A stretch of 34,298 nt of DNA, from NCBI GenBank assembly GCA_003990765.1, contig RBNJ01000279.1:1-34298 (forward strand), read 5' to 3'. Positions within the stretch are counted from its first letter, which is position 1; each line of letters opens with the position of its first letter. The notes beneath the pieces are model-generated. The model searched no databases. It saw only the letters and a program-made list of their open reading frames with translations, and had not been told where the DNA came from. This DNA is from Jimgerdemannia flammicorona. Lineage: Eukaryota. The translations under genes and the position numbers were made by a program. This document shows positions 2,626 through 32,514 of the stretch, piece after piece.

Positions 2626-2639
2626 AAGGAATAATATTA

Positions 2640-4899: not shown

Positions 4900-4904
4900 A
4901 GTAA

Positions 4905-5293: not shown

Positions 5294-5339
5294 CAGATAA
5301 TACTTTCTATAGTATTTTTGGTGAAAAGCAACTAGCAAT

Positions 5340-6845: not shown

Positions 6846-6887
<42 letters not shown>

Positions 6888-8220
6888 AGGCAGCTTTGGT
6901 GAAGTTCTTGAAGAGGAAAGAAGGAGTTGAGATTGGGTTCAAGCAAGAGGCAGCATTGTTGGCAGCTATGGAGAAGGGGGTAACAGTAGGTGGAGTGGTG
7001 ATCTCTATAGCCAGATGTATGTGCTGGAACCCTTGAGTAGTGTAGTTGATGGTATTGGATCTTTCTACAGTATCAAGAGAGAGGGCTAGAGAGTTGATTG
7101 TAGAGGTGGTCAAGGAGTATGAGGAGATTGTGGACATCAGGTTCAAAGTCTGGGAGGGTACAGAGCTCTGGACTGATTATATTGACATCCAGGTGAGGCT
7201 GGCTAAAAAGGAGAACATAGGGAAGATGAGGGACTAACCAGCAACTCTGAAGTTGAGACCAGTGGAGTGCAAGGTCTTGAGGGTGAAAAGGACTCAGAAA
7301 GAGGAGGAGGATTTACTGGAGGCTCTTGAGGATCTGGTAGGAGTGGTCAAGAGGAGGAGATTGGCTTGGAAGGAGCATGAGGCCAAGATAGTGATAGAAA
7401 TGGTAGATGGGAAGAGGATCAGAATAGAACAAGTGACCTAGGAGAAGATACAGGAGAGGTGAATCCAGAAGGAACTGCTGGAGAAGTTGGGTAGCAGTGG
7501 GGCTAACAGAAGTGCAGAGAAAGGGGGGGCAGGACTGTGAGAGAGTGCCTGGACAGGGGAATACAGGATGGCCCAAGGTGAGGCCCAGGGTAGATCGAGG
7601 GAGGAGGGACAGAGTGGTATAGAGACAGATGTAGAAATGGGTGAGAAAGTACACTCTCAGTATAGTGTCCTGAGTGGGGCAGAGGGTGAGGAGGAACTAC
7701 TAGATATATCAGAAGAGGAGTGGGATAAGTCAGTGAGGAGGAGCACTTTGATAGACCCAGAGGTGGGAGTTGAACAGATTGCTGGAGGTGGTGGATGAGA
7801 AGAAGTGGCTGTGGAAGACTCTAGAGGGGATAGCAGCAGAGGAGCTGGGGAAGAGGACTTCCAGGTTATGGAAGAGAGGGATTGGGAGGAAATTCTTTAT
7901 AGTGAGGAGGTACTGAGGAAGGTTAGGAATGAGATCCTGGTGGTTCTCTTGAAATCAGTTGAATATCAAGTAGATGATCAGAGGGAGGAGGAACTTTGGA
8001 TAATTGTAAATAAATGGTCAGTATACTTGTGAGGATTGAGGAAGAGGTTGGAGAAGTGGAGAGTGGTCTGTACAGATTATTTGGGCAGAGATAGAAGTGG
8101 TGAATGGGGTGGAATGTTAAGAAATTTTGGAGGCATTGGATGCTCAGGCTGTAATAGAAGGTGATCTGGAAGCAGAGTGGTACTTAGATCTGGCTAGGGA
8201 TGAGATGAGTATGGAATACT
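5340..8220 (+). pseudogene. LINE-B ORF1, interrupted by a nested LINE fragment
   Basis: 5340-5618 and 5631-5931 are in the same frame; coding resumes at ~6903 (VKFLKRKEGVEIGFK). Homologous to LINE-A ORF1. 3' end approximate. Confidence 0.75.
5932..6885 (+). mobile_element. 5'-truncated L1-clade LINE (ORF2 C-terminal zinc-finger region + 3' tail) nested in LINE-B ORF1
   Basis: TSD aaagggggcagctttggcga (5912-5931)/aaaggaggcagctttggtga (6883-6902). PPKFWVVWWRFL..LGY..CKWC..EHIVVVC. AATAAA at 6826 and pure A37 tail at 6849-6885. Confidence 0.93.
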
Positions 8221-8253
8221 AGGCTGGGTTCTCAAATTAAAACATTATTCAAT

Positions 8254-11200
8254 ATAAACAGTACAACTAGAATATTCTCTTTGAATATGAATGAGTTAAG
8301 AGAGATAGCTTGGTGAAAGTACATATTTGGTTAGCTCAAGAGATTAGATGCAGATCTCTTCTTACTATAGAATGTATGTTATGAGGTAGATATGGACTTA
8401 CCAAATTGGACTAGGGAAAGAGGGGGGGCAGTAGTTTGGACTAGGCAGGTGGATATCCTAGTTCAAAAGAGGATGGGGGATATTGGTAATATTGGACATT
8501 GGGGGAGTCAGTTAGTGTGAAGAGTGTGAAAGAGGCCTGAATAGAGCCCTTTAACAGTTGGGTCATATTATTACCCAGCAGAGAGAGGGGAATAGATAGT
8601 TTGGATCAGAGATTTGAGAGAAGCCAGTATCATGGGTGAGGTGAGGATTGACTGCCTGGGGGGTAATTTCAACATAGTATGGGATAATGTGGTGGACAAG
8701 ACTGATGGTGGGAGAGGAATGAGGAGCAGAAGTAGCAAATTGGATGATTGGATGGAGATAGAGAGGTTGAGTTCTTTGGTTGATTCAGAGAGACAGTTCT
8801 GAGAAGATTGTCAAATTTATACTCACTGGGCAGCAGGGCTGGGCTCTAGGATCAACTGGATATTGATGGCAGAGTGCTGGGGAGCAGATGTCTGGGCTGT
8901 ACTGGAGGTGATTTGGTACCCATGGTCTGATCACTGGGGTCTGTTAGGGAGAGGGAGGTTTGGGGAAAGTGGAGATGGGCCTGGACATTGGTAACTGAAT
9001 TCCTCTTTGTTAGAGGATGGTACTTTATGGACAGACTGAGAGGAGGAAGTTATTGGGAAAATTAGTAGATGGTGAGAACAGTGCCTGGTGATTGAGAATC
9101 ACTGGAGGAGGCTGAAATCAAGTGCTCAGGGGTACTGGAGGGAAGCAGAGAAAGGAAGGAGTATTCAGCAGTAGCAGAAAGTACTATGGGTTTCACAGAG
9201 ATTGGCAGTGCTCCTGGGGAGATGGGTGGGGGCACTAGAGAATTGGGAGGCAGCCAACTGGTATATTGTGTGAATTCAAAAAGAAGTTGAGGAGCTTAAG
9301 AAAGTGATACAAATGGAGGAAGAGGTTAAGCTGAAGGGGATGGTGGAAAGGCTGAGGTAGCAAGAGTTAGAGGAGAGAGAGAGACCCACTAGGTTTTTAT
9401 CATGGTTGTTATAAGCACAAAGAACTAAACAGCAGTGGGATGGTCTCTTGGATGAGGATGGGGAGATAGTGGTGGGGACTCTGGCAATTCTGGAATCACT
9501 AAGGACCTGCTGGGAGGATTTGTAGAGTGAGGAAGAAGAGGGTGAGAATGTCTTGAACATTGAAAGGCAGTTGGAGGATTGGCATCCAGACCCAGCAATG
9601 GGCCTGGAGACTCTGGGGGACCCAGTGAGGGGGGAGGAAATTTGCAAGGTTTTGGCTTCAACAAGCAAAAGGATGGCTCTGAGAGAGAATGGGCTTCCCT
9701 GGGATTTTTGGAAGAAGATGGCTGGGGTAGAGGTGGTATTGGAAGAGATGACAGCAATGTATAGTGAGGTTTTTTGGTCTGGAACTTGGATTGGAGACCA
9801 GCACCTAGGGCTGGTCTCCTTGCTCTATAAGGATAAGAGGAGAAGGGAAGATTGGAAGAACTAGCAACCAATCATACTTCTCAATATGGACTACAAACTA
9901 GTGATAAAGGTCTTGGTGACTAGACTGCAGGAGATCACTCAGCAAGTACTAGGAGCAGAGCAAAGAGAATTTGTTAGTGGTTGGTTAATCCAAGATGGAA
10001 TGGCCTGGGTCCATAGAATGATTGAAGAGGCTTGGACTGCTGGGGTTGATGGCAGATTAGTATTTCTGAATCAGGAGAAGACATATGACAGAGTGAGGAG
10101 GATCTGGCTAGAGAGAGTGCTGAAAAGGGTTGATATTCCTCCAGGGTTCAGGAGGTCATTGATCAGTCTTTTGAAAAACAGTCAGAGAGTATTGGTAGTC
10201 AATGGATACAGGAGTGTAACTTTTCCACTTAGTCATAGGGTACCACAAGGAGATCCTTTGTCACCCATCTTATATGCCCTTTCCTTGGAGCCTCTATTGG
10301 ACAGGATCAGGTACAAAATTGGAGGCTTGGACATTCTGGAGATTAATTGGAAAGTTGGGGCCTTTGTAGATAATATGGTGATTAGACTGATTTTGTTGGA
10401 GAACATGGAGAAATTAAGGAGATCTGTGGAATAGTATGAGAGAGGCTCAGATGCTAATCTCAACTGGCACAAATGTGAGACTCTGGTGCTAGGTGGCAGA
10501 ATAGTTAGCAGTAATATGATTGGAATGGTGATACCAGCAGGAGATCCAGTTCATTATCTGAGAATCTACTTCTTGGTATATGGGTCTCTTCTGCCCTATA
10601 CTTGGTGGGAACAGTGACTCCTAGTATGGGGAAATGTGCTCTTACAGTAGAGTGGTCAGTATATTTTCTTGGCAGAAAGAGTGATGGTGCTGAATGTGTA
10701 TTGGCTGCTGAAGCTGTAGTATGTGGGATATCATCTGGACTTCCTAGCATGGATGGTCAGGTGACTTCTAAAGATGGCAAGATCATAGATCTGGACTGGG
10801 TGGCAAAGTTAGATAGGATGGGAGGTTCTGACCCTACCTGTAAACAAAGGTGGGCTAGACTTGGTGGACTTTACCAAATACCTTTATTGCTTGAGAGCAT
10901 GGTGGCTGAAGAGAGCAAGTGAGTTAAGGGGCCAGGAGTGGATACCACTCATGCAACAGATGTGGGAGGCCTGGTATTCTCCCTGTGAAGTATCTGGTGA
11001 TCTGCTTATGATGGTGGCTCTGGATGGGAGCAAGAGGATGTGGTATAAGGGCTTTTGGTGGGGAGTGGTAGATGGTGCAAGGAGAATTGGACTTTAGTGG
11101 CAGAGTAATGAGGGAGAGGAAGATTGGGGACTGCAGATATAGAGATGGGACAGGTTACTGCTGGGTGGTACTTTGGTGGAGGATTTTCAGCTTGGTGATG

Positions 11201-11900
11201 AAATGGATTGTTTGCAGGGCTTAGGGGGGGACCTGTGGCCTGAAGCATAGCAGAGGGTGGGGATTAGTGAGGAGTGGGACTGGAATAATATTTTGCCATA
11301 GAGCAAGCAGGTGATGTGGTGGCTTCTCCCCAAGTTCTGGGTGGTTTGGTGGCAGTTTCTGAGGTGGAATATGATATTGAACTATTGGTCTGAGCACTTG
11401 GTAGCAGATGGTACATTGGAGTGTGAGGAATGTATAGATATTGAACAGAAGGGGGGAGTGATGCAAACACCTGAACATTGGCTCGGTGAGTGTGATGTTT
11501 TGGGGGAATTTTGGTGCCATATTGCAGACCAGTTAGGGCTATGAGCCCTGGTGGAAGGGGAAGAAAGGATATGGAGAGACCTCCACCAATGGCTAGTGAG
11601 AGGGGTTGGGGATAAATGACTGACCCTAGGTTGGGCTCTGGCAATTTGGGTTGGACTGGCTGGATATTGGCTATATGTATTTAAGGAGAACTAGTAGGTT
11701 GGGGTTGGGGCTAGGGTGGTATGATGGAAATAGCTATTACTGGACATTTTGAACAGCTGGTGGAGAGGGTAGGGACTGGGTGGGGGGAGCCACTGGAGTT
11801 TGGTAAATTGTATTTGTCAGAAAAGTGAAGGGAGAATTTGAGTAATAAGTGACTGGATTATTTTCCAACAGGGAGGGTTGAAGGGTGGAGAGGGAGATCT
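8254..11900 (+). pseudogene. LINE-B ORF2 (APE-RT-CCHC zinc finger), multiple stops
   Basis: RIFSLNMNEL, GGNFN, PWSDH (~8921), FLNQEKTYDRV, PQGDPLSPILY, GAFVDN (degenerate ADD), CEEC..EHWLGEC. End approximate. Confidence 0.92.
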
Positions 11901-11990
11901 GAGGGGTATCAGTTGAGAGAATGTGGGTAAAATTGTATTATTATTTATAGATTGAAGTAATAAAGAGAAGTCTAAGTAACTATAAAAAAA

Positions 11991-12030
<40 letters not shown>

Positions 12031-12033
<3 letters not shown>

Positions 12034-12109
12034 TCTCTTTAAGCTACTTTAGACTAACTAGAACTTCCAGATTTAGCCACTTTTTCTTAAAGAAACTAGA
12101 ATCATTATA
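12031..12109 (+). repeat. Element A 5' LTR, part 2 (3' end)
   Basis: Matches 17672-17750 and ends in ttata before the PBS. Confidence 0.9.
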
Positions 12110-12111
12110 CT

Positions 12112-12125
12112 TGGTAGCAATGGTG
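12112..12125 (+). promoter_or_regulatory. Primer-binding site of element A, probably tRNA-iMet
   Basis: TGGTAGC 2 nt after the LTR end; the same start as the initiator-Met PBS of Ty1/Ty3. Confidence 0.7.
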
Positions 12126-13178
12126 TCATTATATCTTATCTTATTAAGAAACCTCACACAAATTCAGAAACCAGTCACAACTAGTTACATAAACCTAAAA
12201 TGAGCCATAAAGAGTCAGCCTACTAGCCAGACCCCTCTGCTATAGAAGAAGCAGAAGGACTGTAAGTTGATATAGAGGATATGATCACTGCTATAGCCCA
12301 TCAAATCTAAGAACTTCAAGCACAACTAGAACAATAAAGAATAAGAACTGTGAGTATATTATATTCTGCTATAGTACTAGTTAGTTTCAAGCCACTCAAG
12401 CCAGATATCTTTGATAGTTATTGAGGAAGACTATCTATATATACATAGACCTTCCAGTTGAATCAATACTCTGAGCTCACAAGAATGGAAGAAGACATAT
12501 ACATAAGTCCAATTTGCTGCTATACTTCTCTAAGAAAATGCAGCCATCTGGTGGTATAATCATATTATGACTATATCTATATACTCATATATATGAATCA
12601 GAGACTGGGAAGCTTTCAAGAGAGCCCTTCACAAGCAGTTCAAGCCTATTAATACTACTAAGCTAGTCAGAGACAAGTTAGTGAACATCAAGCAACTCAA
12701 GTCTGTACAAAGTTATAATATATAATTCTTATCAATTCTACTTAAGCTATCAGCAATATCTGAGAATGAAAAGATAGACCACTATGTCCAAGATCTGAAG
12801 GGAAACATATAAGTCAAGGTTGAGCTAGAAGAGCCTAAAAATCTTAATGAAGCTATGATAATTGTCAATAGGTTTGATGTTATTATCTTTGGTAACTACT
12901 TTGAACCAGAATACTACAAGAAGAACCACTTTGAGAACCACTACAGAAACTAACCAAGAACAGTTGGCCCAGCACCAATAGACTTAGATACTATGAAAAA
13001 AAAGAACACCAAGCTTACCCCCGAAGAAAAAGACTATCTGAAGAAATCTGGAGCCTATTTCTTCTATTATCAAACAGGATACATTGCAACCAAATGTCCT
13101 AAAAAGACTAGTAAACCCTCAAGACCAGTCACCATATTGTTCAAAGACATACCTGCCAACTCTACTACTAGTCAATCT

Positions 13179-13589
13179 AAGCTCAAAATCAAGAAGCTTC
13201 ATCTGAAGGCCCAGACCCCTCAATATCAAACAGAAGAAGCTATTGGTCTTGACCTATACTCTGTCAAACAAGTCACCATTTCAGCTAAGAGCTGAACTCT
13301 GGTACCTACTAGAATTGCAGTTCAATATCCTGAAGGACATTATGCCCGAATTGTACTATGATCAGGACTCAGTGTCAAACATCATTTAGATGTAGGTACT
13401 GGTATCATTGACCCAGACTTTTGAGGACAAGTCTAAGTTCTGCTTATCAACCAGAAGGATCAAGACTACACAGTCAAGGAAGGAGACCAAGTTGCACAAA
13501 TGATCCTAGAAAAAGCCAGTCAACTTAAGATTTCAGAAGTCCAAGAACTCTCTGAAACCAAATGAAACTAAAAAGGATTTAGCAGCACC
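13179..13589 (+). pseudogene. dut: dUTPase domain of element A (between gag knuckle and protease)
   Basis: Recognisable trimeric dUTPase motifs: AIGLDL, (R)SGLS, VGTGIIDPDF(R)G, GDQVAQ, (R)..KGFSST. In frame with both knuckle and protease. Confidence 0.9.
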
Positions 13590-16500
13590 AATCAAGCAGC
13601 AAGTCTTACTGAAAATTGAGCTCAAACTATGCTCATTTTCAAAGGCTTAGTGAAAGGAAAAGAAGTTCAAGTACTTATAGACAGCAGAGCTACAGAGAAC
13701 TTCATCAATCAGAATCTCATCAAAAGCCTCAAGATTCTCACTAAGTCTGCACCCAAGAATAACAGTATAGTCTCTATAGATAGTACTCTATACCCCATTA
13801 AGTCAATTACTGCCAAACTATCCATCAAGATCCAAATATTGAGAATGAGTAGACTTTGAGTTTGCTCTACTAAGAGATCATGACCTGATCCTAGAAAAAC
13901 TCTGGCTTATAAAATATAATTCAGATATTGATTAATGTAAGAATAAAGTCACCTTACTTTAAAATGGAGCCAACATCACTATCAAGACAGACAAGACCAT
14001 GAGCAAGACCCAGATTGTAATACTATCAGCTATACAATACAAGAGAGCACTCAAGAAGATAATACATACCTTTATTGTAATAGTCTGTTCTAAGAAATAA
14101 GACAAGAGACTGTCAGTCAATAAAAGTGTCAAGTTACTACTAGAAGAATTCAAGGATGTCTTTCCAGATAAGCTACCTGGTCTACTGCCTACATGAGAAG
14201 TTGATTATGAAATTGAACTGATCCCAGGAGCTGTACTATCCAAGAAACACATGTACCATATGTCACCACTTGAAATTGAAGCAGTCAAGAAAGAATTAGA
14301 AGAACTACTTATACAAGGAGCCATTCAGTCAGTAAATCTCCTTATGGCTCACTAGTTCTATTCATCAAGAAGAAGGATAGTCCTTTGTGAATATATATAG
14401 ACTACCATATACTCAACAAGCTTACTGTCAAGAACTACTATCTACTACCCTTGATTGATCAAATCTTTAATGCTCTCAAGAATATCAAGTACTTCACTAA
14501 GTTAGACCTTATGTCAGAATACCACCAGATCCAAATCAAGCCAGAAGACATTCCCAAGACTGTATACCCTCTTTGGACTCTATGAATTCTTGGTCTTAGT
14601 ATTTGGTCTCACTAATATACCCACCATATTCCTGACCCTGATGAACAAGATATTCAAGGACCAACTATTTAGTTTTCTATTAATATATCTTGATAATATC
14701 CTGATCTTTAGCACAACTAAAGAAGAATATCTCAAATATATTTAAATAGTTCTGGAGATCCTGTAAAAATATAAGCTTTACACTAAGCTCAAGAAGTATA
14801 AATTCTTCAAGAAATAAGTCAAATATCTTAACCATATTGTCTCTGTATAAGGAATTCAAGTAGACCTATATAAGATAGAAGCAATTGAAGAATGACCCAG
14901 TACATTGAACCTCACAGAACTCTGATCCTTCCTTGGTCTAGCTGGCTACTACTGCTACTTTGTCAGAAACTTCTCTAGTATTGCTGAGCTACTGAGGAAG
15001 GCCCTATACTCAGATCACTATATACTCTATACCTGAGATATCTTTTGTCAACAAAGTTTTCAAAAACTCAAGAACTATCTGACTCATGCTCTAGTCCTGC
15101 ATAATGCAGATCAAGGCCTAAAATTCACAGTTACTACTGATGTATCAAATTTTACCATTAGAGTAGCCCTGTTACAAGATGATAATAAAGAATACTGTTC
15201 TATTACTTTTGAGTCACACAAATTAGCCCTGGTTGAAGAAAAGCTAGCCACTTATGAGAAGGAACTACTGACAATAATACATGCACTAGACCACTAGTGA
15301 TACTATCTAGAAAGTATTGAGTTTGATATCATTACTAATCATCAATCTCTCAAGTACATCAACACCCAACCTACTCTATTATATCTATAAGCCAAATAGA
15401 GCCTCAAGCTTCAAACCTTCAACCCAATGATCATCTACAAGTCTAGTAAGACACTTATAGTATCAGATATCTTATCAAGATACTCTGATCTTACTACAAT
15501 CATGCAAGTCACCTTGGAATCAGAATTTCTGGACCAAATCAGATAAGCTTACAAAGAAGATATAGTCATTACTAGAGTTTTTTTAAATGAGCTCAAGGAT
15601 ACATATACTGTTAAGAACAATCTGATCTATTATTATGACTAAGTCTACTTACCTGGAAACATAAACCTATACTATAAGGTTTTGCAAGAACACTATGACT
15701 CCCCTCTTGTCAGTTATATGAGAATTGAGAAAACTATCAAAAATATCCAACACTGCTATTATTGATCAAGCATGGTCAAGAAAATCAAGAACTATGTTGC
15801 CAGCTGTAATCTATACTAGTACAATAAGTCTACTAACCAAGTATCTACCAGTTTGCTACAACCACTGCCAATTCCTACTAAGAAATTCAAATAAGTTACT
15901 ATGAACTTCATAACTCAACTACCATGAACTCAATCTGGTACTGATACTATCATTATATTTATTGACCATCTGATCAAGACTATGGTTGCTAAACCAATCA
16001 CTACCAATACTACTATATCTGAGATTACAAGAATCTTCTTCAAGTTCATCTTCTGTCACTATGGCCTACCATGAGTAATTGTCAGTAATTGTGACTCTAA
16101 GTTTACTAGTTACTTCTAACAAACTCTCTTCAAGCTCCTGGAAATCCAATTGGCTATATCTACTGCCATTCACCCCCAAACTGATGGACAAACTGAGCAT
16201 ATGAATAGAACTCTAGAATAAAATACTTAGAAACTATGTTTCTTATAAGTAAGATGATTGGAACCACTATCTGACTTATGTGGAGTTCACATATAACAAT
16301 ACTGTCCAATCATCTACTGGTCTTTCCCCTTTCCAGTTACTATATGGTCAAGATTCTGAGACTCCTGCAAGTCTATTCTCTTTCAAGAAAAGCAGTCAAA
16401 TACAAGTCTCTACTACTAAGAGTCTTATAGACAAAATGGATGAACTACTCAAGATTGTTACCATGAATCTTCAGAAAGCTCAACAACATCAAGCCAAGTA

Positions 16501-16801
16501 TACTGACAAGAAATACTGCAATGTTACTTATACTATTAGAGATCAAGTTCTACTGTCTACCAAGAACCTTAAGATATAATCTCAAGTCAACTACCCTTTG
16601 AATAAGTTCCAACTCAAGTATATTGGACTTTTTGAGATTACTGAATAAGTCTCTGCATCCTCCTACTACCTCAAACTACCTGAAGCAATGAGAGTATACC
16701 CAGTCTTTCATATATTACACCTCAAGATCTGAAACCAGTTACCACTCTACTCTGGTCAAATTCCTAAGCCATCTGCCCTTATAATTATTGAGGACCATAT
16801 T

Positions 16802-16950
16802 GAGTATGAAGCTGAGAAAATTCTTGACAAATAAATCTACTACTGCTGTCCTAAATATCTAGTCAAGTAGATAGACTACCCTGAATATAATACTACCTGA
16901 GAACTACTGATCAATCTCAAGAACTCTCAAGATCTAGTTCAAGACTTCAA
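16802..16950 (+). pseudogene. Chromodomain at the integrase C-terminus of element A
   Basis: EYEAEKILDK..YLVK(W)IDYPEYNTT(W)E..NLKNSQDLVQDF. Confidence 0.88.
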
Positions 16951-17272
16951 GATAAAATACATTACCCAATCCCTATAGTGACTTTCTTGGATTATTGATA
17001 ACTTATAGCAATGACTAGTGCTTTATACATCAGAAGTTTACTTTGGGATCCAAGAACCAGCAGAATATTTAATGAATAAGAATTCCACTGAAATGAAGCT
17101 ACTAGCTGGGTTTAAACCCCTCTTAGTTGGTTAGTCTAGTAATAGTAATAGACTCTCTGCCCTATATAAGGATGACCAATCTCTGCCAATATACTCATAC
17201 AAGTTTGAGAAATTTTGGTTAAGTATATCTAGTCTTATATTACCTTAAAACTCAATAAGGATATTAGTTCTT

Positions 17273-17285
17273 AAGGAGGGAGGGA
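17273..17285 (+). promoter_or_regulatory. Polypurine tract of element A
   Basis: aaggagggaggga immediately before the TG of the 3' LTR. Confidence 0.85.
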
Positions 17286-17750
17286 TGTAATAGTTTTACA
17301 GTCATATTTAGTCTTAGTATATTTTCACATCTTTTAGTTAGTCTTTTCTTATTATTTCTTAAATATTCTACTATATTCCACTACCTTCTACTTGCTTAGA
17401 AACCTTCTCTCAGTGCTCAGACACTACTAGAATATTCTTATCTTTCCTTAGCACCAAGTATCTTATCTTAGCTAGTCATAGAACCTTTCAGAATATTATA
17501 GAATAGTATTAGTCAGCTTTGTCAAGAACTTATTTCTTAGCATTTCTCTTTCTTTCCAAGATCCTTCTGGATCTTTCTTTTAAATCATATATAAATATCC
17601 TTATTCTCTACCTGAATAAAGCTCAGAATATTTTCTCTCAGAAATTCTTCAAGAATACTTAAACCTTTAAAGTATCTCTTTAAGTTACTTTAGGCCAACT
17701 AAAGCTTCCAGATTTAGCTGCTTCCTCTTAAAGAAACTAGAACTATTATA
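17286..17750 (+). repeat. Element A 3' LTR (465 bp)
   Basis: Direct repeat of 4905-5293 + 12031-12109. TATATAAA at 17588 and AATAAA at 17615. Confidence 0.93.
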
Positions 17751-18494: not shown

Positions 18495-18970
18495 TGTAAC
18501 ATAGTGGATGCTTACTCTTAAAAGTACATCAGATTTCTGTATCTTGAAAACTTGACTATTCTGACTCTTGCAGAGTCTCTTGAAGTTGTAGGGGAGGGTG
18601 GGTGAGTTTGAAGTGTATCTGCCCGCAGGCTTACTAGTTCCTTTGCTATCTCTTTGCTTTGAACTATTTCGATCTGAGGTTTATTCACTTGAAGATACTG
18701 GGTTATTTATACAAGTTTGCTAGCTATGAGAGGGTGGCTAAGTAATAAATGAGTCATTTGGACTTTGTCGAAACATTTGGACAATATCTAAATGCTATAC
18801 TAAATCGGGGTATTCGATTTGGATAATGTCTAAAATTTAGACAATGTCTAAGGATTTAGACAATGTCGAAATTGAGGACTGCTAACTATAAGGTTATACT
18901 ACTTTGGGACTGGGTACGATCAAGTGTCTATTCCCTATTTCCTTCTTCCAAATTTGGCTGTACTGTTACA
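18495..18970 (-). repeat. Element B 3' LTR
   Basis: TG..CA termini; about 23 mismatches versus 24756-25231 by manual alignment. Minus-strand TATAAA at 18706-18711 and AATAAA at 18680-18685. Confidence 0.95.
18757..18871. repeat. Five copies of a 17-bp palindromic motif TTTRGACAATGTCYAAA in LTR U3
   Basis: Copies start at 18757, 18776, 18818, 18836 and 18855; the same array is in the 5' LTR (~25018-25132). Confidence 0.8.
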
Positions 18971-19034
18971 ACTTCCTCCTGAATGGATGGTCTTGTCCCT
19001 GAGGCATCTATTCAAACTCCCAGGCTTCAACGGT

Positions 19035-19469
19035 CTATATGGTCTTGTACTGTGCAATTTGCTGTATGACTGTTTCCCAATGATGTCTCTTCACTTTCTC
19101 AAAGTCAGTGAGAGTTACTCCTCTTAGGTAGTCTATTGCTGCTTCATCTTCTCAGAATAACTTGTGGATCCTTTTGGCAATAGTGATCTGTGAGTGAGAG
19201 AGTTGACACTCAGCAATCCAGTCCTCCTTGGTCTTTACTGGATCCTGATTGAGCACCTGTCCAAGCTTGAAGTACTCTTGGAATTCTATGTGATACTGAT
19301 AGGCTCTAAAGTGCAAGATCTGAGAGAGATGAGTCTGCACGATACTCTGAATATCCTCATAGTATACCTCTATGGTCGGAGGCTCAGTGGTGTGCCATTG
19401 TCTTTCGATGGCTCTTTGGGCAGCACTAGTGATCTTAAGTGCCATTATGGTACTTTTGTTACTGGCCAT
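19035..19469 (-). CDS. Uncharacterised accessory ORF (ORF3) in the env position of element B, one internal TGA (likely from CGA)
   Basis: ATG at 19469 overlaps the pol stop (19459-19461). MASNKS..IAKRIHKLF(*)EDEAAIDYLRGVTLTDFEKV..; similar to the ORF inside family C LTRs. Confidence 0.65.
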
Positions 19470-22400
19470 GATATTTCTTGAGTCAGTTTCAGTGAATGGT
19501 GGTGGGGATTATTGTGCCTGAGGGTTTTCGTAGCCAAAAGGTAGTCCCTTTTATATCTTACACAAGGTAAGGTCCTTCCTACTTGGGCTCCAGTTTTCAT
19601 GACCATGAAGCTTCTACCATGTTCCAATACACCAGGACCTTGTCTCCTATCTTGATAATCTCCAAGGGCTTGTGGATCTTTTCTGCATTCCTCTGTTGTA
19701 GTGTCTGTGTCTTGGTTATATAATTCTCAGCCTTTTTCCTGATTTGGTGTAGTCTCTGTATTTCCATGTCCACATGTTTCCATACAGTATCTCCATTGGA
19801 TGATAGGGTTCCTTGAGAACATTCTTCTCCAAACAGCATTTCTCAAGGGGTAAAGTGGATGCTTTGTGATTGGATATCCCAGAGAGCAGATAATGCTATT
19901 GGCAGATAGTGATCCCAGTTCTTGTAGTTATCACAGATCTTGGCGATAACATTCTTGAGGGTTTTGTTGGTCCTTTCTACTTATCTGTTTCCTTGGGGGT
20001 GATAGGCTGTGGTCTGAATGTGCTGGATCTTGTACTTCTTGTAGAGAACCTCAAAGAGCTGGTTCACGAATTCTGTTCCTCTATCTGTAGTTACTTGTGT
20101 TGGGGTCTTGAACTGGCAGATGATTTTCTTGTGGAAGAAATCGGCGATTAACTGTGCATTGGCTTCCTTGAGGGGTCCTGCTTCTATCTACATATTTTGT
20201 AAAAAGGTCTACAATGACAATGATGTATTGATTACCAGTCAGGGTCAAGGGTAGAGGGCCGATTACATCCATTGCTATATGGGCAAATGGTACTGGTTCT
20301 ATGTGTGCTGATCCTGGGACTTGATTCCGTTGGTCTTGTTTCTGTTTCTGGCATTTGTCACATGTTTTGATGAATTGTCTGATATCTTCCTCCATCCCTG
20401 GCTACCATATTGTTCTTCTTGCTTTATCATGTGTATTCATTCCTCCTAGGTGGCCAAGTTCATGTACTGATTTCATCACTTGCTCCTTCTTGTATTCTGG
20501 TATGACCAGTAGTTTTTCTTTCTTCAGTGTTTCTCCATCGGTTTCAAATTGTTTCCATATCCTGTTGATAATCGTTTGTGTCTATTCTTCCAGATGTTGG
20601 GGCATCTTTCGCTATCCCAGGTATGTGATGATTCCATAGTAAAACTCCTTATTCATGATTGATTTGTTGGTTGGAGGTAGTTTGAGGTGTCTGTGAGAGA
20701 GCATCTGCATTGAAATTTGTTCTTCTAGGGCAGTGCACGATGGTTACATCATAGGCTTGTAACTTCATTATCCATCTGGCATAGATTCCCTTGGGTTGTC
20801 CGGTTGTCAGTAGCCAGGTGAGAGCTGAGTGATCTGTCTGGATGGTGAAGTGTCTTCCGGCCAGATAGTAGTGGAACTTTTCCACAGCCCAGATGACTGT
20901 AAGGCATTCCAACTTGTAGGACTCATATTCTTTTTCAGCCCCTCGGGTTCCATGGCTAAGATATGCAATGATATACTCTTTTTTGTCTTCTTTTTGAGCC
21001 AGGACTGCTCCTAGTTCCTGTGCGCTTGCATCTGTCTGAAGGATAAATTCTTGGGTCCAATTGGGTCATCTGAGGATGGGTGCCTGAGTTAGTCTGATCT
21101 TGAGTTCATCAAATGCTTTTTGTTGTCTGCCAGTCTACTGGAACTTGGCATCCTTCTTGTTGAGTTCATAGATTGGACCTGCGATGTTGGAGAATCCTCT
21201 AATGAATCTGCAATAGTAGGAGGCAAGTTCCATGAAGACTTGGGCTTCTGTGACAGTAGTGGGCCTTGGGTATGCTGCTACCGCTTATATTTTGAGGGGG
21301 TCCATGTGTGTTCCATCTCGATTGATAATATGGCCAAGATAGGAGATCTTGATTTCTGCAAACTTGCACTTCTTGGGTTTGATATAAAGGCCATGTTGTC
21401 TTAGTTTCTCCATTATCTGCTGTATGTACTGCAGATGTTCCTCAGGTGTCTTGCTGTAGATGATTACATAATCGACATAGACCATCATCCATCTTCCCAT
21501 ATCATAGCAGAAGATTTTGTTCATCATTCGCTGAAAGCTTGCTGGTGCATTGCACATTCCAAATGGCATTCGTAGATAGATGTAGGTTCCATCTGGGGTG
21601 ATGAAGGCTGACTTTTCACTTGCCATTTCTGTGAGTCCAATTTGGTGGAATCCTGAGTATAAGTCCAGGGTGCTGTAATACTGTGCTTCATCTCCCAGTA
21701 TTATAAGGATGTCACTGATGAGTGGCAGTGGTTGACAATCCTTCTTAGTAACTGCATTGAGCTTTCTGTAGTCGACACAGAGCCTTGGGGAAAATTCTCC
21801 AGATTTGCTTCCTTTTTTCGGAGCTAGTATAACTGGTGAAGACCAGGGGCTACTGGCTTCTTTGATGATGCCGGCTTCTTCCATCTGCTTGATTTCTTCT
21901 CTGAGCCATTCTCGGTAGGCTGGTGGGACAGGTCTTGCCTTCTGGTAAATTGGTTCGGTGTCTCCAGTATCTACCTCATGATAGTAGTGTGGGGTCTTTC
22001 CCTTGATATCCTTGAAATCCGTGACAAGGACATCCTCAAATTTGTGGAGTATTTTCTTGAGTTCTTCCTTGAGTGGGAATTTGTCTCCAATGGTGTAACT
22101 GTGCTTGCTCATGTTTTTCTCCTTCTTATGCTCAAGTTCGGTGATCTTGGTGCTGGCAAACACTCCTCTTCCTGTGGATCCGAATCCTTTCTTTCCTCTT
22201 TTCATTTCCTCCAGATTCTTGACTTCTATGATCCTTGGCTATATCATTGGGAAGATCAACATCTGTGCCAATTAGTCCTTCTTCTTGACTGAGAATGGAA
22301 TTGTAGGATTGTGGTTCCTAGCAATGAGTAGAATTTCTCCCATATAGTCTGAATCAATGACTCCTCCTTCGATTGTGATTTCACTTCTAGCCAGGCTGCT

Positions 22401-24641
22401 TCTTATCTTGAGAATCCTGACATGATCCTTTGGGATGGTCATCTCTAGTCCAGTTGCAAGTAGCGTGGTTGTCTGGGGTTCGAGTATAGTTTCTTCTACT
22501 GTAGTGATGTCCATTCCAGCTGCATTTTCTGACTTATATTCTGGCAAGACTGCATCAGGGTGGATCTTTCGAATCTTGACCTTGATTTCTTCTTCATCAT
22601 CACTGTCCTCCAGGAGGGCTGGTGGTTCATCATCTTCCTCCTTCTCTTCTTCCCTGATCTGTTTCTTGAGAGTTTTCTGGCTTCTTTCCTAGTAGATCTT
22701 CCTGGTTTCATTAGTGCACTGGTAGCAATCATTGACATGCTCCATACAGTACATCTTGATTCCATGAGGACAGACTCCTTGTGGGGCATAACCTTCTGCG
22801 ATCTTCTTGCACTATTCTTCTTCACTCATCCATCTAACTTTCTTCTTCTTTGGGGTAGTCACCATATAAGCTTCCTCTTGCTCGCTCTCTTCTTCCTCCA
22901 TATCAGGCAGAACTCCTTTATTGACATTGATGGGAATTCATATCTTCTGTCCCTGGTAGGTGATCTGCATCTTCTGAGCATTGAGATCGATTACTGCCTT
23001 GGCTTTGTGAAGCCATTGATTGCCGATGAGGATGTCATAGTTGGTGGCATTGGTTACAATTATATCTACTGGGATTGTTGCTCCTCCAATCTTAATGGGA
23101 ACATCTTGGATCTTTCCCAGAGGTGTGGCTCTTGTGCCATCAGCTGTGACAAATATTAGCTTAGTTGCTTCTTCCACATCCCAACCTAGGTGGTCTGCTG
23201 CCCTCTTACTAAGGAGACATCCTCCTGCTCCTGTGTCAATGATGGCTTCAAAGACTCAATCCTCAATTTGGCATGTTGCATAAGCAGAGGTTTTGCGATT
23301 GTCCTCACTTTCTTCTCCTGAGTCCTCTTGAACATTATTGGCCTCGGTTATCTTCCATCCTTATTCCTTGGTTGTTTCAGTAAGTCCAAACCTCATTTGC
23401 TGTCTGAATGTTGGGATTTCTGCAAGCTGACCAAAGGTTGCATTGACCTTTTGTTGACTGAGATCCTTGAAGATATTATACTTGAAGGTCTTGGTCTTGC
23501 GAAGCTTCTTTTCTTTTTCTCCTTCACTGGCTGGAGTGGTTCCTTGGATGATATCTTGAACTGCTTGCTCCAGCTCGATATTCTGGTCCATCTCTTCAGC
23601 TTGGCTTTCTGTATCAGTTTTCATCCACTTTTCCACTGGGTTCTTCTTGGGTCTTCCTGGCAGTCTCTTGTAGGGTTCTTTGCGAGCATCCTTCTTAGTG
23701 GTCTGAGCAGGATAGGCCTCCCATTCCTCTTCATCGGATTCTCTGATTTCTTCAAAGGTGATTGTATTGGCCTGCTCCTTGTTTCATGTAGCATTGCTTG
23801 ATTGAGCCTTGCATTTGGTTTCACTCATACATTCATAGGAGTAGTGGCCTTCTTCTCCACAGCTGTAGCAGGTACCTTTCTTATTGTCTGAGGTGGTGGC
23901 AAACTTCTGAACAGGGCAGCAATCTCTTCCTCAGATTTCCTTTACCACATCTCCCAGGTGGGTGGTCATTTCAGCAAATCTTTTGGCGAGTTCCTCCATA
24001 GGGTCACTGTTCTTTTGCTGCTCTATAGCTTTTGGCTGAGGTGTGTTTCGATTGATCATTGTGGTGGAGATCACACTGGTTGCCTTGGGTGCCTCAATTC
24101 TGACTTTTGTAACTCTCTCCATTATATGGTCTTGTGGGTGTCTGGCTATCCAGTATTGCTGAGCATAGGTGACCTTTTGTGGCAGATCCAGAATTACTGG
24201 TGATGAGCAGATGGCCATGGCTATTTCTGGATGAACTCCTTTCATAAAGGTTGCTTCGGCTACTTGATCTCGGATAGCAGCAGCATAATCTGCAAGGATT
24301 ATCTAATATCAAATTCTGGTATAGAATGTGTTTGGATCCTTACTTATTTCTTGGCACGTTATGTTGAGCTGATCCTTCAGGGCTTGCTTGATCTCATCTG
24401 TGTAATATGTGTTTCGGAGCCAGGTCTTCTGTGCCGTCAGTATGGCATCACCATCATTTCCTGCATGGGTTGCAGCTGTGAATGCTGCTCTGGCAGGGCC
24501 TCATAGGCTAAAGGGCATGAGGGCTACTTGCTGTACTGCTATCAGAGTCCTTACAGCAGCATACTGCTTGAAATCATCAATGAAGGTGATGATTGATTCA
24601 TCTGAGGTATATCCATGGAATACTGGTGGTCTCATATCCAT
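19459..24641 (-). pseudogene. gag-pol: Element B gag-pol polyprotein
   Basis: CYSCGEEGHYSYEC knuckle (23829-23870), AIIDTGAG protease (~23235), dUTPase, RLCVDYRKLN/DLYSGFHQI/YVDY (RT), TDHSAL (RH), CDKC + IAMDVIGPLP (IN), GPY motif. Several stops and frameshifts; start approximate. Confidence 0.93.
22170..22586 (-). pseudogene. dut: dUTPase domain of element B (between protease and RT)
   Basis: AAGMDI, RSSLA, GGVIDSDYMGE, KKD(*)LAQ, RGKKGFGSTG. Confidence 0.92.
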
Positions 24642-24755: not shown

Positions 24756-25231
24756 TGTAACATAGCAGACACTTACTCTTGAAAGTACATCAGATTTCTG
24801 TATTTTGAAAACTTGACTGTTCTGACTCTTACAGAGTCTCTTGAAGTTGTAGGGGAGGATGGGTGAGTTCGAAGTGTATCTGCCCATAGGCTTACTAGTT
24901 TCTTTGCTATCTCTTTGCTTTGAACTATTTCGATCTGAGGTTTATTCACTCGAAGATACTGGGTTATTTATACAAGTTTGCTAGCTATGAGAGGGTGGCT
25001 AAGTAATAAATGAGTTATTTGGACTTTGTCGAAACATTTGGACAATATCTAAATGCTATACTAAATTGGGGTATTCAATTTGGATAATGTCTAAAATTTA
25101 GACAATATCTAAGGATTTAGACAATGTCGAAATTGAGGACTGCTAACTATAAGGTTATACTACTTTGAGACTGGGTGCAATCAAGTGTCTATTCCCTATT
25201 TCCTTCTTCCAAATTTGGCTGTACCATTACA
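24756..25231 (-). repeat. Element B 5' LTR
   Basis: 476-bp direct repeat of 18495-18970. Confidence 0.95.
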
Positions 25232-28330: not shown

Positions 28331-28441
28331 AATTCTTATAGGGATGACTCTTGTAGTCAGAGTAGTTGTTGTGGTAGTTGTTTATTTTTCAGCTTAAATG
28401 TGAGAGATTCATCTTGAATTACTAGCCAATGAGTATCAAGT

Positions 28442-29975
28442 TGTTATGTAGTAGTCACTGAGTCCTTCAAATATATCAGATTCTCTTCAAGGTACATAAG
28501 TTTGTTATAAGCAAGTTCTTATTGGAGTATCTTCCTAAGATCTTATAGTCCTCAAACTTCTTATCTTTAAACTGTCTTACATATTATCTCTTATATTGCT
28601 TGTATGGAATTGAGTATAAGTAAACTAGACCGACTTTATTTTAAAGGAAATAAGAGGGATATTTATATAAAATATAATTTAATAGTTGCTAAGTTATAAA
28701 GCTAAATATAAATTCCAATAACCAAATAAAATACTGAAATACAAAAAACTATAGTTATAAGTGTAAATTCAAGTATCTGTACAAATGATTGCACAAGTTC
28801 AAGATGCTAGTAGATTTTGATAGTATAGAAAAAGAGTACTGATAGAATTCAGTTATATAGAAAAAGAATGCCAGAAGATTTCAGTATTACTAAGAACTTA
28901 GAGCAGAATGTTTAGGACTATGGGGGCTTCATCTTCATCACTACCAGAGGTCAGGATACTCTCAAAGAAAATGAGGTCTATAAACATTTTGTCCATTTCA
29001 CATATTTCATATGTATCATATGGGATGACATCATCATGAGTAATGTCATCTCATTTGGTGGCAGGGAAAGTAAGGAGATCTGGGGCTCTCCAATCTATAA
29101 GGTTCTCTTCTACAAAATAAGAGACAAATGTGGGATCTTGGGGAGGTCTAATCTGGATGCTGGGGTCTTGGAATACTGAGATCAATCCTTATAGGAATTG
29201 ATCAGAATTGTCCTCAAGGATGGGATTCCAGAACTCTCCTATCTCATCACTATTGAGAATGATAGTGGACTGAGCTTCCGTGGCCACTATAATCTCTAGT
29301 ACATTGGTATGGCAGGCTGATAGTTTCTTGAAGTCTGAGATTCTAGTATACTCCAAGTTGGGGATTGACTATAGTGTATGTCTGAAGATCTGATAAATCT
29401 TCTTTGCTATCCTTATTTTATATATATCCATAGAGATGGCATCTTGAATCTCTTGGGAACTGATCTGAGGGAATTTCCAGTAGAGAAGGTTTCCTATTTC
29501 ATACTTCTACTATATTCAGAAGTATTTGATATTAATGGTGATCTTTGTTTCCATTTCACAGTGATAGAGGATATAATGATAAGAGTTACTAATACATAGG
29601 TTGAGGCTAGGAGTCCTTCTTGTGTGAGTTCTCATAGCTCTTCTGATGTCTTGGAATATTCTTTCCTGGACTGAGAGATCTTGATAGTTTCTGAATCTTG
29701 AGGTTTGGTAAGTGGTAGATATTTGTTTATAATAAAGTCTTTTGAACTATTTCTGTGAGTCTTGTTTGGGTTACTGCTATTGCAGTTTCTTGATCTTTCT
29801 TTTATATTCCTCAAGATATCTATCTTGTGGTCATAATAACTCACAGTTAGTCATTATTACTCATCTTATAGCCTGGGTGAGTCATACTATATGATCTTCT
29901 TATGCTATGATCTGGTGACTTATAAGAAAAGACTATCTTCTATAATAATGTCATTATTCTGAGATTACTATTATA
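28442..29975 (-). repeat. Element C 5' LTR (1534 bp) containing an ORF
   Basis: Reverse-complement homology to 30902-32510 at both ends and internally. Adjacent ACT+PBS. Minus-strand TATATAAAT at ~28661-28669 and AATAAA at 28635-28640. Confidence 0.9.
28898..29854 (-). pseudogene. LTR-embedded ORF3 homologue (319 codons, single frame, transition-type stops)
   Basis: ..RIFQDIRRAMRTH..YEIGNLL..IRIAKKIYQIFR..IPNLEYTRISDFKKL..EFWNPILED..DWRAPDLL..; one frame by my translation, conserved in the solo LTR. Confidence 0.7.
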
Positions 29976-30472
29976 ATATATATCTTATGCTAAAAATAAG
30001 GTCTAATATATTATATACTATAAATAAGATGGTATAGTATTTCTTCTTCTATAATAATTTGCATTAAAGTATCATTAAGAGAAATTTTAGATATCTTAAG
30101 AGTATGATATACTATATACTCACTCTTAGTAGATTAAGTAAGAGTAATAATAATAACATTATTATTATATAGCTATCTGGTATATATAATACTAATTGAA
30201 TAGATAATTTAGATAACTACTAATCTATAACTAGATATCTTTTCCATATTAATAACTAAGGGTCTATTATCTCATAACAAATATATAAACAATTTCCTAT
30301 TACAATATCATCTATAGAAGCTAAATATCAGATATTATTATTGATAATAAAGAAATCTATATAGCTTCATCAATTTATTAAAGAGCTTGACTTCATCTAG
30401 AAGTATAACTCTATACTTATTCTATAAGATAATTAATTAATAATTATATTGGCAAAAAATCTAATATATTAT
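29976..30472 (+). pseudogene. Ty1/copia RT C-terminus and RNase H relic, hypermutated
   Basis: YLMLKIRSNI (=TRPDI), KRNFRYLK, YNTN* (=DADW), SITRYLF, S*QIYKQ (=SWQ..KQ), SSIEAKY (=SSTEAEY), DN*LII.LAKN (=DNQSAI.LAKNP). Confidence 0.85.
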
Positions 30473-30901
30473 AAACTCTATGTATAACTTAGCAAATGTG
30501 AATTTTTACTTAAGAAAATTTAATTTTTAGATTATATTATTACTTCTAATAAAATTAAAGTTAACTTAAATAAGATTTCAATAATTAAAATAATTAAGAA
30601 ATAGCTTTAATCTAAGAAGATTTATAATCTTAACTCATTCTTAAAACTGATTAACTACTATTGAAAATTTATTAAAAAATTTACCAAAATAACTACTATA
30701 ATTATCCAGTTACTCAAAAGTGATAAAAAATATAAAAAAACAGACTTTATTAATCTTATAAAATAGAAATCCAAATGTTATAAAATATTTTAAATATTAA
30801 ATAATACTCTGATCACTACTTCTGTTCTTTAAGTATCTAACTCTATACTATTTTATAAGATGACTACTGATATCTTAGACTGAGTTCTTAAAGCTATATA
30901 T
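30473..30901 (+). pseudogene. Ty3/gypsy RT/connection relic, part 1, hypermutated
   Basis: KLYV*LSKCEF, FLDYII, SFLKLINYY*KFI, TTDILD*VLKA (=TTDASD..LGA). Confidence 0.82.
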
Positions 30902-31019
30902 TGTAATAGTGATCTCAGAATAGTGGTATCATTACAGAAGATAGTCTTTTCTTACAAGCCACTAGATTAAAGTATAAGAAGATCATATAGTATAACTCAC
31001 CCAGACTATAAGATAAGTA

Positions 31020-32049
31020 ATGATAACTAACTATAAGTCATGATGACTATAAGATAGATATCTCAAGGAATATAAAAGAAGAACTAAAGAACTACAGCAG
31101 CAGTAACTCAAACAAGACTTACAAAATCCTGAAATAGTTCAAAGACTCACTATAAATAAAATATCTACTGCTTATCAAACTGCAAGGTCCAGGAACTACC
31201 AAGGGATTCTCAGTCCAAGAAAAGATATTTCAAGACATTAGAAGAGCTATGAGAGTCTATACCAGAAGGATTCCTAGCCTTAACCTAGGTACTAGTGACC
31301 CTTACTACTTTATTCTCTACTGGAGATAAGGATTACTATTACTACTGAATGTCTTTAGATATGGTAGGAATATAAAATAAGAAATCTCCTCTGCTAGAAA
31401 TTTCCTCAGGCCTATCTCCAAGAGATACAAGATATTACCTCTATAGATCTATATGAATTGAGGATAGCTAAAAAGATCCATCAGGTCTTCAGGTATGTAT
31501 CTTGATCAATCCCCAACTTGGAGTATACCAGAGTCTCAGACTTCAACCTACTATACAGATACACTAGAGATCATGGTGGTTACAAAAGTTCAATCCATCA
31601 TTACTCTTAAAGAAGAGTTCTGGAATCCCATTCTCAAGGACAACCCAGATCAATTTCTATAAGAATTAATCTCAGTATTCTAAGATCCCAGTATCCAGAT
31701 TAGACCCTCTCAAGATTCCACCTTTATCTCCTACTTTGTGGAGAAAAATATCATAGACTAGAGAGCCTCTGATCTCCTTACTCTCTCTGCTACCAAACAT
31801 GATGATATTATCCTGCTAATCAAAATACATGAAAAATGTGAAACATGTAAAATATATAAAACACATAAAACACACAAAATATACAAAATATACAAAATAT
31901 GTAAAATATGTGAAATATACAAAATAGATGAGATACTTATAGAAATATTCACTGACCTTATTTCCTTCAAAGACATCCTGTCTCTGACCTCTAGTCTTGA
32001 TGACAGTGATGAAGATAAAGTTCTCAGTATTCTGAACATTCTGCTCTAA
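31020..32049 (+). pseudogene. LTR-embedded ORF3 homologue in the solo LTR (frameshifted)
   Basis: LRIAKKIHQVFR..SIPNLEYTRVSDF..EFWNPILKD..LNILL*; same terminal stop as the copy at 28898. Confidence 0.65.
31822..31920 (+). repeat. 9-bp tandem repeat (~11 units, RAAAYAYRY) in frame within the LTR ORF
   Basis: aaaatacat gaaaaatgt gaaacatgt aaaatatat aaaacacat aaaacacac aaaatatac..; only ~2 units at the equivalent place in 28442-29975. Confidence 0.8.
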
Positions 32050-32514
32050 GTTATTTATATAACTGTCAGAAATTATTCCAGCATTCTGATCTTGTACAAC
32101 TAATTGTATAGATACTAGAATTTGTAAAATTTCTGTATTCAAATATCTTATTTGATTATTAGAATTTATATTTAGTTTTATAACTTAGCAATTATTGAAT
32201 TATATTTTGTATAAATATCTCTCTTATTTCCTTTGAATTAAACTCAGTATTCTAATACTTAGTATTCAAACACTCAAGCATTCAAGTACTCAACTACTCT
32301 GAAGTACAGAAGTTTCAGTCCTCTACTCAATTCCAAGCAAGCAAATCCAAGAGATAATAGAATAGTTTAAAGATAAGAAGTTTGAGAACTATAAGATCTT
32401 AGAAAGGTACTCTAATAGAACTTGCTTATAAGAAACTTATAGTTGGTCTAAGAGATACATCTTAAAGATAATCTGACATACTTGAAGAACTTAGTACTCA
32501 CTATATGACAATAT

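Follow-up and report, generated by a model that had tools for sequence, protein, structure and literature searches.

The locus described here raises the question of what a Ty3/gypsy retrotransposon may encode between the end of its integrase gene and its 3' long terminal repeat (LTR). The window that we analysed, i.e. the whole stretch of 34,298 nt from Jimgerdemannia flammicorona (contig RBNJ01000279.1, assembly GCA_003990765.1), is a nest of retroelements, one of which, here called element B, lies on the minus strand and carries a further open reading frame (ORF), ORF3, after its integrase. A first-pass annotation made from the sequence alone had proposed that this frame encoded a real, selected retrotransposon protein, and that proposal is borne out by selection acting in the ORF3 frame, by an intact ORF3 in the equivalent position of a related element (L001) and by profile and shuffle tests linking ORF3 to a homologue in a second retrotransposon family of the window (family C). 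We conclude, with a probability of about 0.85, that ORF3 is a genuine third gene of a lineage of chromodomain-less, dUTPase-bearing Ty3/gypsy LTR retrotransposons.

ORF3 of element B occupies positions 19008..19469 of the minus strand and, as delimited by the alignment of its relatives, comprises 153 codons and a stop (TAG, 19010-19008), with a translation that opens MASNK and truly ends EAWEFE about 30 nt ahead of the polypurine tract. The first-pass annotation had it start at an ATG overlapping the integrase stop; this ATG (19469-19467) lies 5 nt ahead of the stop codon (19461-19459), and the frame that it opens is +1 with respect to integrase. The downstream limit has had to be revised, as the 145 codons originally counted end at the second in-frame stop of the window copy (TAG, 19037-19035) and the longer reading of about 167 codons overruns the real stop. 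Three full-length relatives (the database proteins P0001 and P0006 and the ORF3 of L001) carry Gln at codon 145, read past 19037-19035 and all end in EAWEFE, and the true gene is therefore 153 codons long with its stop at TAG 19010-19008. The window copy holds two in-frame stops, the TAG at codon 145 and a TGA at 19154-19152 (codon 106); the earlier explanation of the TGA as a C>T change stands. In the alignment of P0001-P0009, relatives have R, K, Q or H at the place of codon 106 and Q at that of codon 145. Assembled contigs were also consulted from runs X1-X4, recorded as DNA or of unknown kind (the best-matching sequencing runs, soil metagenomes among them, share 0.05-0.17 of sampled words). 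Over 19154 all contigs read G on the plus strand in X1 (four contigs), X3 (one) and X4 (one), and in X2, at a depth of 2.4, the other letter was found in no contig; at 19037, G was read in five contigs of X1 (depth 69.1 of 72.2) and in one each of X3 and X4. Judged by these alignments, both stops are C>T changes private to the window copy. This copy of ORF3 is dead, in an element whose integrase is broken too.

The evidence for selection comes from L001, the single locus obtained from 317 pattern matches in a metagenome scan. L001 is a near-intact relative, 73.5% identical to element B over 5.6 kb, and holds gag, protease (PR), dUTPase, reverse transcriptase (RT) and RNase H in one frame of 1274 codons, with an integrase (IN) that is interrupted once. 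Its ORF3 is intact (153 codons, 5001-5459) and shares 41 nt with the end of integrase, and the polypurine tract downstream of it is that of element B. When the two elements were compared codon by codon, the per-site proportions of non-synonymous and synonymous differences (pN and pS) in ORF3 were 0.215 and 0.841 over 151 codons, beside values of 0.217 and 0.758 for the capsid (CA) part of gag, 0.145 and 0.730 for RT and 0.089 and 0.488 for the integrase core. In both off-frames of the ORF3 stretch pN was 0.35-0.37 and pS 0.28-0.29, and the excess of silent change is confined to the ORF3 frame. In addition, of 25 ORF3 variants in contigs from soil metagenomes, 15 affect the third base of a codon (binomial p 0.0056), these 25 being the best-supported places among 40 listed of 134. 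ORF3 has evolved under purifying selection.

Element B itself is a Ty3/gypsy (Metaviridae) LTR retrotransposon with a dUTPase, and this part of the first-pass annotation is confirmed by its LTR pair, primer-binding site, polypurine tract and order of Pfam domains. LTR comparison placed the 5' LTR at 25231->24756 (24756..25231, minus strand) and the 3' LTR, which reads TGTAACAG...GTTACA, at 18970->18495 (18495..18970, minus strand); the pair is 95% identical over a 300-nt reference copy. A sequence resembling a primer-binding site, TGGTACCCATTGG, starts with TGG after the 5' LTR (24752-24740, minus strand), and the polypurine tract AGGAGGAAG, identical in L001, abuts the 3' LTR (18980-18972, minus strand). 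A Pfam scan of the window, carried out on stop-free segments, gave the order PR, dUTPase, RT, RNase H and integrase, with protease at 22941-23255 (E 2.7e-11), dUTPase at 22275-22688 (E 1.3e-15), RT (RVT_1) at 21288-22238 (E 1.5e-31) and RNase H (RT_RNaseH) at 20652-21065 (E 2.5e-34), all on the minus strand, and gag carries a CCHC knuckle. The integrase (19459..20581, minus strand) consists of a zinc-binding domain, a core and a C-terminal GPY..LKKYHGQ module, its Pfam pieces (Integrase_H2C2 and rve) spanning 19984-20581. It is disrupted by stops and at least one frameshift, and its end reads IH, stop, N, stop, LKKYHGQ and the final stop (TAA, 19461-19459). There is no chromodomain after the integrase, which ends at LKKYHGQ, and no chromo match in the Pfam-scanned segments, and element B does not qualify as a chromovirus. 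The element is inserted into the RT of the family C element, which likewise bears a dUTPase. At its boundaries (25231/25232 and 18494/18495) the flanks read CCAC followed by TG and CA followed by TCAC, which suggests a 4-nt target duplication and one later C>T change.

The relatives of the ORF3 protein number at least 35 in the databases, are 49-169 aa long and form two mutually homologous subfamilies, alpha and beta. A word-index search of 5.8 billion proteins gave 11 candidates, nine of them relatives (59-76% identity, 83-153 aa) without a Pfam match, and a profile search of 1.84 billion representatives gave four proteins at E <= 0.001, all small ORFs. One of these four, P0011 (165 aa, E 9e-4), led to the beta subfamily, which took in 11 of 38 candidates plus further members from cluster look-ups. 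The two subfamilies align end to end (hhalign probability 97.3%, E 2.4e-11, 109 columns), and have in common an N-terminal helix, an E-P-P-x-I-E-E linker, an EFQxY..G...N block, a T-I-A-x-R-I-Y-x-L-F-R-D...A-L-x-H-L-x-G-I-x-P-x-D-F block and a C-terminus of the form [LV]-[ED]-[AE]-W-[ED]-[FLV], i.e. VEAWEFE in alpha and LDEWDL in beta. All seven relatives with a complete N-terminus share their initial Met and begin MA(N/S)N. The profile search of 1.84 billion representatives gave neither a cellular nor a longer homologue; viral contigs gave no match for either subfamily, the ESM Atlas no usable lead, and longer or fused forms were absent from 7999 scored candidates of 297-2000 aa, the last being weak evidence. 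On the sequences searched, ORF3 encodes a small protein (150-170 aa) of a family without detectable relatives outside these elements.

A further homologue of ORF3 lies inside the LTR of family C. Copy C1, of about 1.56 kb, is the 5' LTR of the element that hosts element B (29982->28420, i.e. 28420..29982, minus strand), and copy C2 is a solo or truncated LTR at 30901->32500 (30901..32500, plus strand); the two are inverted copies, 75-80% identical, and a third copy starts near 32999. TATATAT precedes each family C LTR start. Each copy starts TGTAAYAGT, as does the element B LTR, and C1 ends in ACA, after which come a primer-binding site and a leader that are homologues of those of element B, C2 being without a primer-binding site; from the TGTAAYAGT starts and the end and B-like primer-binding site and leader of C1 it follows that these 1.56-kb repeats are LTRs. 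Nucleotide similarity between the ORF3 and LTR of element B and the family C LTR is limited to short, collinear stretches close to the TATA box and to the end of the LTR, and those with the element B LTR occupy the last 300 nt or so. A simple upstream move of the polypurine tract is one possible origin of the family C arrangement. The ORF3 homologue is placed about 300 nt from the 5' end of the LTR, upstream of the promoter-proximal part homologous to element B's LTR, i.e. in the U3 (unique 3') region. In C1 it is decayed, with four in-frame stops (29294..29665, minus strand; hmmsearch and hhalign), and in C2 it is both decayed and frameshifted (31228..31559, plus strand; i-E 0.07 for its second half).

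The first-pass annotation had aligned ordered blocks of the element B frame with a frame in the family C LTR, and these blocks are real and collinear by BLASTP, hhalign and hidden Markov model (HMM) searches. BLASTP gave E 2e-4 over 37 aa; alignment of a 26-sequence profile with the C1 translation by hhalign gave a probability of 85% (E 6.2e-6, 116 columns), and hmmsearch recovered C1 at i-E 1.3e-5 over HMM positions 7-131. The alignment also survives the shuffled controls against which it was to be judged: the Smith-Waterman score of 63 (z 6.4) was reached by none of 2000 shuffles (mean 30.2, sd 5.1, maximum 58), and the score of 13.5 given to C1 by a beta-only HMM containing no window sequence was matched by none of 1000. 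Of the four stop codons of C1, two face another stop in C2 (TGA against TAG), one a sense codon and one an identical stop, which means that most of them arose independently in C1 and C2. In the ORF3 frame the ratio pN/pS between C1 and C2 is 0.40, as against 0.84 and 0.60 in the two off-frames, which hints that the U3-borne form was once coding. Family C thus carries an ORF3 homologue wholly within the U3 of its LTR, seen here as decayed copies, and this relocation is unusual. The sag gene of mouse mammary tumour virus (MMTV) and lentiviral nef are ORFs in, or overlapping, the LTR U3. MMTV sag and the family C form are alike in that an ORF inside U3 is duplicated with the LTR; the proteins are unrelated, and the family C form is known here from decayed copies (four stops in C1, a frameshift in C2).

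What kind of protein does ORF3 encode? The highest Kyte-Doolittle mean over 19 residues was 0.19-0.74 in eight family proteins, against a usual transmembrane (TM) threshold of about 1.6. Since no 19-residue window exceeds a mean of 0.74, ORF3 is not a membrane glycoprotein, and the earlier statement that it lacks a membrane run and is no env protein holds for these eight. The proteins are acidic to neutral (pI 4.7-6.8) and contain no arginine-rich stretch. In all six beta proteins considered, 11-12 of the last 30 residues are D/E and none is K/R, and in both alpha proteins 5 are D/E and 3 K/R; the beta tail (residues 138-167) is predicted to be disordered yet is conserved, acidic and aromatic-rich. 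AlphaFold predicts an all-helical, soluble-looking protein, with pLDDT (predicted local distance difference test) 81 for the best alpha model and 72 for the beta model. By eye, the alpha C-terminus (I-QT-V-EA-W-E-F) fits what we take to be the spacing of an export signal, as does the beta tail in part. A helix-hairpin-helix-like pattern, seen by eye in the TIAxRIYxLF...AL.HL.GI.P.DF block, had neither profile nor fold support and was dropped. Comparison of ORF3 with the element's own gag revealed no homology (hhalign probability 0.3%) and only a short EEWE-type peptide in common: an acidic EEWEAY peptide is present in the gag-protease linker of both element B (23700-23760, minus strand) and L001 (about 720-770). 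EEWEAY and the Trp-acidic end of ORF3 (VEAWEFE or LDEWDL) may represent a host-binding motif common to both proteins.

As regards expression, element B and L001 both have A at position -3 and G at position +4 of the ORF3 start, an initiation context that on sequence grounds is strong. It lies about 5.3 kb into the genomic RNA, and the protein is therefore probably made from a subgenomic RNA, most likely a spliced one. A candidate 5' splice donor, GGTGATT, can be picked out by eye in the element B leader (within 24741-24730), and CTCAG, also a lead found by eye, occurs shortly upstream of the ORF3 ATG (within 19524-19511). No joints are seen in the contigs of X1-X4, a result that has no bearing on splicing. 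The U3 of the element B 3' LTR contains three tandem copies of an 18-19-nt palindromic unit (18816-18871), a near-perfect palindrome of the form TTTAGACA A TGTCTAAA, upstream of TATAAATA (18711-18704). In L001 an 18-nt tandem array of 4.5 copies (5605-5685) lies at the equivalent place in U3 and is cut off by the end of the contig; the repeats are equivalently placed in the two elements though these are only 73% identical.

Retroviral Rev, Rex and Rem are small element-encoded non-structural proteins, and foamy-virus Tas/Bel1 and the Tax protein of human T-lymphotropic virus (HTLV) are transactivators whose genes lie 3' of the structural ones and whose response elements are repeated in U3. The first-pass annotation had suggested a transcriptional regulator or an anti-silencing factor, both of which are conjectural. 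We tentatively propose for ORF3 a role comparable to that of the retroviral proteins, as an adaptor or regulator that would act in trans on the expression of the element or the handling of its RNA, and regard this as possible, with the balance of our judgement on the doubtful side. The features that we cite for it are the helical core, the conserved disordered acidic tail of beta, the aligned C-terminal W motif and the U3 repeats. On this proposal the helical core would bind a component of the element (RNA, LTR DNA, or Gag/IN), and the conserved C-terminal Trp-acidic peptide, preceded in beta by a disordered, strongly acidic tail, would recruit a host factor after the manner of the Rev/Rex/CERV export adaptors or of Tas-type activators; the palindromic 18-nt U3 repeats would be candidate response elements. 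A fuller scheme, to which we attach slightly less belief, would make these 'complex' LTR retrotransposons, in which an ORF3 trans-regulator translated from spliced RNA activates the LTR through the U3 repeats or exports unspliced RNA, uses its Trp-acidic end as a hook for the host, and has had its gene moved into U3 in a sister family. ORF3 resembles Tas/Bel1 and Tax in its position 3' of pol, in the acidic beta tail and in the U3 repeats upstream of a TATA box; there is no homology between them, and helix-turn-helix (HTH) domains of ParB/KorB type appear only at Z 3.1-3.8 (see below).

Several points weigh against this account, from the standing of ORF3 as a gene to its suggested role, and are gathered here. 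The evidence for selection consists of one DNA pair (element B and L001) and the contig variants, and no meaningful dN/dS figure can be given for ORF3 because synonymous sites are saturated. The position after integrase was seen for element B and L001. An acidic pI and the lack of an arginine-rich stretch mean that direct nucleic-acid binding is not favoured, and the acidic tail is long in beta and short in alpha. Four of the five alpha-subfamily AlphaFold models have pLDDT values of 43-54, and the core differs between the best alpha model and the beta model, being a helical hairpin at 40-75 in one of the two and a single long helix at 35-76 in the other. The first-pass annotation had not recognized the family, and we found no Pfam, PDB or fold match, Foldseek on predicted structures included. 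In Pfam there was a faint resemblance to HTH_Tnp_Mu_2 (E 0.031, two of ten members), below any threshold; a PDB sequence search gave a best E of 1.4, and Foldseek, with the limit set at E <= 0.001, matched nothing in either PDB or BFVD. With VIA the top values for two models were Z 4.1 and 3.3, well within the noise range for helical models. Among the 50 VIA rows for the alpha model, all below Z 4.2, are the DNA-binding domains of KorB, Spo0J, VirB and SopB (Z 3.8, 3.5, 3.2 and 3.1), and no ParB/KorB-type HTH domain is present in the VIA rows for the beta model. Finally, tandem repeats in U3 are common in LTRs and require no element-encoded factor.

Other explanations have to be considered beside the adaptor proposal. 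ORF3 might be a cofactor of integration or targeting, bound to integrase or to the pre-integration complex, that uses its Trp-acidic C-terminus as a tether to a chromatin or transport factor of the host; it would then stand in functionally for the chromodomain found in this position in related chromoviruses. The integrase of element B stops right after LKKYHGQ, and ORF3 starts where a chromodomain would come; element A, the third LTR retrotransposon of the window, has by eye a chromodomain-like extension and no ORF3, and the EEWEAY peptide in the gag linker of element B and L001 means that two element proteins may share a host partner. However, neither Pfam nor the fold searches reveal similarity of ORF3 to chromodomains or chromatin readers, the chromodomain of element A is below Pfam significance, and the mutual exclusion of chromodomain and ORF3 is known from three elements only, and we consider this role unlikely. 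We judge it equally improbable that ORF3 is a counter-defence factor which, like accessory proteins of complex retroviruses, blocks a restriction factor or silencing by small RNA, chromatin or DNA methylation. Repeats in this host are heavily mutated and presumably methylated (CpG observed/expected 0.00-0.05 in older elements and 0.22 in element B), and ORF3 shares with many viral antagonists its small size, acidity, helical structure, rapid evolution and lack of cellular relatives; the pair formed by element B and L001, however, bears no sign of an arms race, because pN of ORF3 is not above that of gag.

On another reading ORF3 would be no separate protein but the C-terminal end of a longer integrase, translated after a +1 frameshift, or an old domain of integrase severed from it by mutation; in favour of this, the frame is +1 relative to integrase in both element B and L001 and is open for 13 codons upstream of the ATG. 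The overlap, however, differs between the two elements both in length (41 nt in L001 and, counting the ORF3 ATG and the integrase stop themselves, 11 nt in element B) and in sequence (AAG AAA TAT in element B, AAG AGG TAC in L001), so that no conserved slippery site is seen. The seven relatives with a complete N-terminus start, moreover, at the same Met, and no fused protein turned up among the 7999 candidates, weak evidence as this is; an origin of this kind appears very improbable. Least credible of all, in our view, is that ORF3 is a passenger, either a captured fragment of a host gene or a chance ORF, without a role for the element. That its function is unassigned and that the window copy is dead would suit such a passenger; purifying selection in the ORF3 frame only, the equal placement of the gene in two elements 73% identical, the occurrence of homologues in three diverged lineages and the failure to find a cellular or longer homologue among 1.84 billion representatives (four matches, all small ORFs) would not.

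Third ORFs in Ty3/gypsy elements are a known kind, and the ORF3 protein matches none of the systems considered here by any of the tests made. Drawings of fungal Gypsy elements include an 'add. ORF' whose function is unknown, as well as a dUTPase between PR and RT (Novikova et al. 2010, PMC2864245), the latter being reported also for the basidiomycete element PosPlaTy3-5 (PMC2864245). This additional frame is like ORF3 of element B in position, a comparison made by description and not by sequence. The bdelloid rotifer elements Juno, Vesta and TelKA have the order PR-dUTPase-RT...IN(GPY/F), no chromodomain and varied ORF3s (Rodriguez et al. 2017, PMC5408684), the types named there being env-like fusion proteins, small TM ORFs, a GDSL esterase/lipase and a DEDDy exonuclease (PMC5408684). 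These elements are like element B in having a third ORF between integrase and the 3' LTR, in the place of the dUTPase and in the GPY/F-type end of integrase, and differ from it in the protein, that of element B having neither a TM segment nor a Pfam domain. CERV of the Caenorhabditis elegans element Cer1 is described as a small, novel, non-structural protein encoded by the element; its mRNA is spliced, and the protein is needed if genomic RNA is to be exported unspliced (Sun et al. 2023, PMC10309623). The likeness of ORF3 to CERV, as to Rev, Rex and Rem, is one of logic only, ORF3 being acidic and without an arginine-rich motif. We found no description of the ORF3 protein family in the literature, a negative limited by the fact that papers cannot be searched by sequence and that the family may sit unnamed in repeat libraries or supplements.

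Further repeats lie elsewhere in the window. Element A (4904-17750, plus strand) has a dUTPase upstream of its protease (13200-13700, Pfam E 6e-32); the chromodomain-like stretch mentioned above follows an SH3-like module of its integrase and has no Pfam match, and hmmsearch revealed no ORF3 homologue in this element. Copies of a non-LTR element resembling a long interspersed nuclear element (LINE) lie at 5294-12027 (plus strand; RVT_1 at 9865-10431) and at 1-4900 (minus strand). The former sits in the 5' LTR of element A, 4904-5293 and 12028-12109 matching 17285-17750, and there is an A-run near 12000. The coding strand of the LINE-like element is extremely rich in G and poor in C, with a GC skew of about +0.5 and -0.5, and its CpG observed/expected ratio is 0.02. 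Overall, CpG is nearly gone from the older repeats of the window (observed/expected 0.00-0.05) and low in element B (0.22), which at 126 aligned CpG sites of L001 reads CA at 34, TG at 33 and CG at 20. Judged by these counts, the host evidently deaminates or methylates CpG in repeats; the pattern is not the classic signature of repeat-induced point mutation, because TpA is not in excess in element B. Taken by themselves, the heavy CpG loss, the relatives in soil metagenomes and the chromodomain-like stretch of element A would suit a fungal host, perhaps a basidiomycete. The spacers between the family C LTR copies (30000-30890 and 32500-32990) are very AT-rich (18-19% G+C). After the third, truncated family C LTR start (32993-33092), the stretch 33100-34298 is 50% G+C and holds ORFs without a Pfam match.

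Very few non-env accessory proteins of LTR retrotransposons have been characterized, and extra genes of this sort show the gain of virus-like regulation or interaction with the host. ORF3 is a concrete candidate for a retrotransposon-encoded regulator or adaptor, and it carries a warning for annotation, in that the stretch from integrase to the polypurine tract in these elements is coding. If the trans-regulator reading were true, a regulatory layer like that of Rev or Tas would have evolved in these retrotransposons independently of retroviruses.

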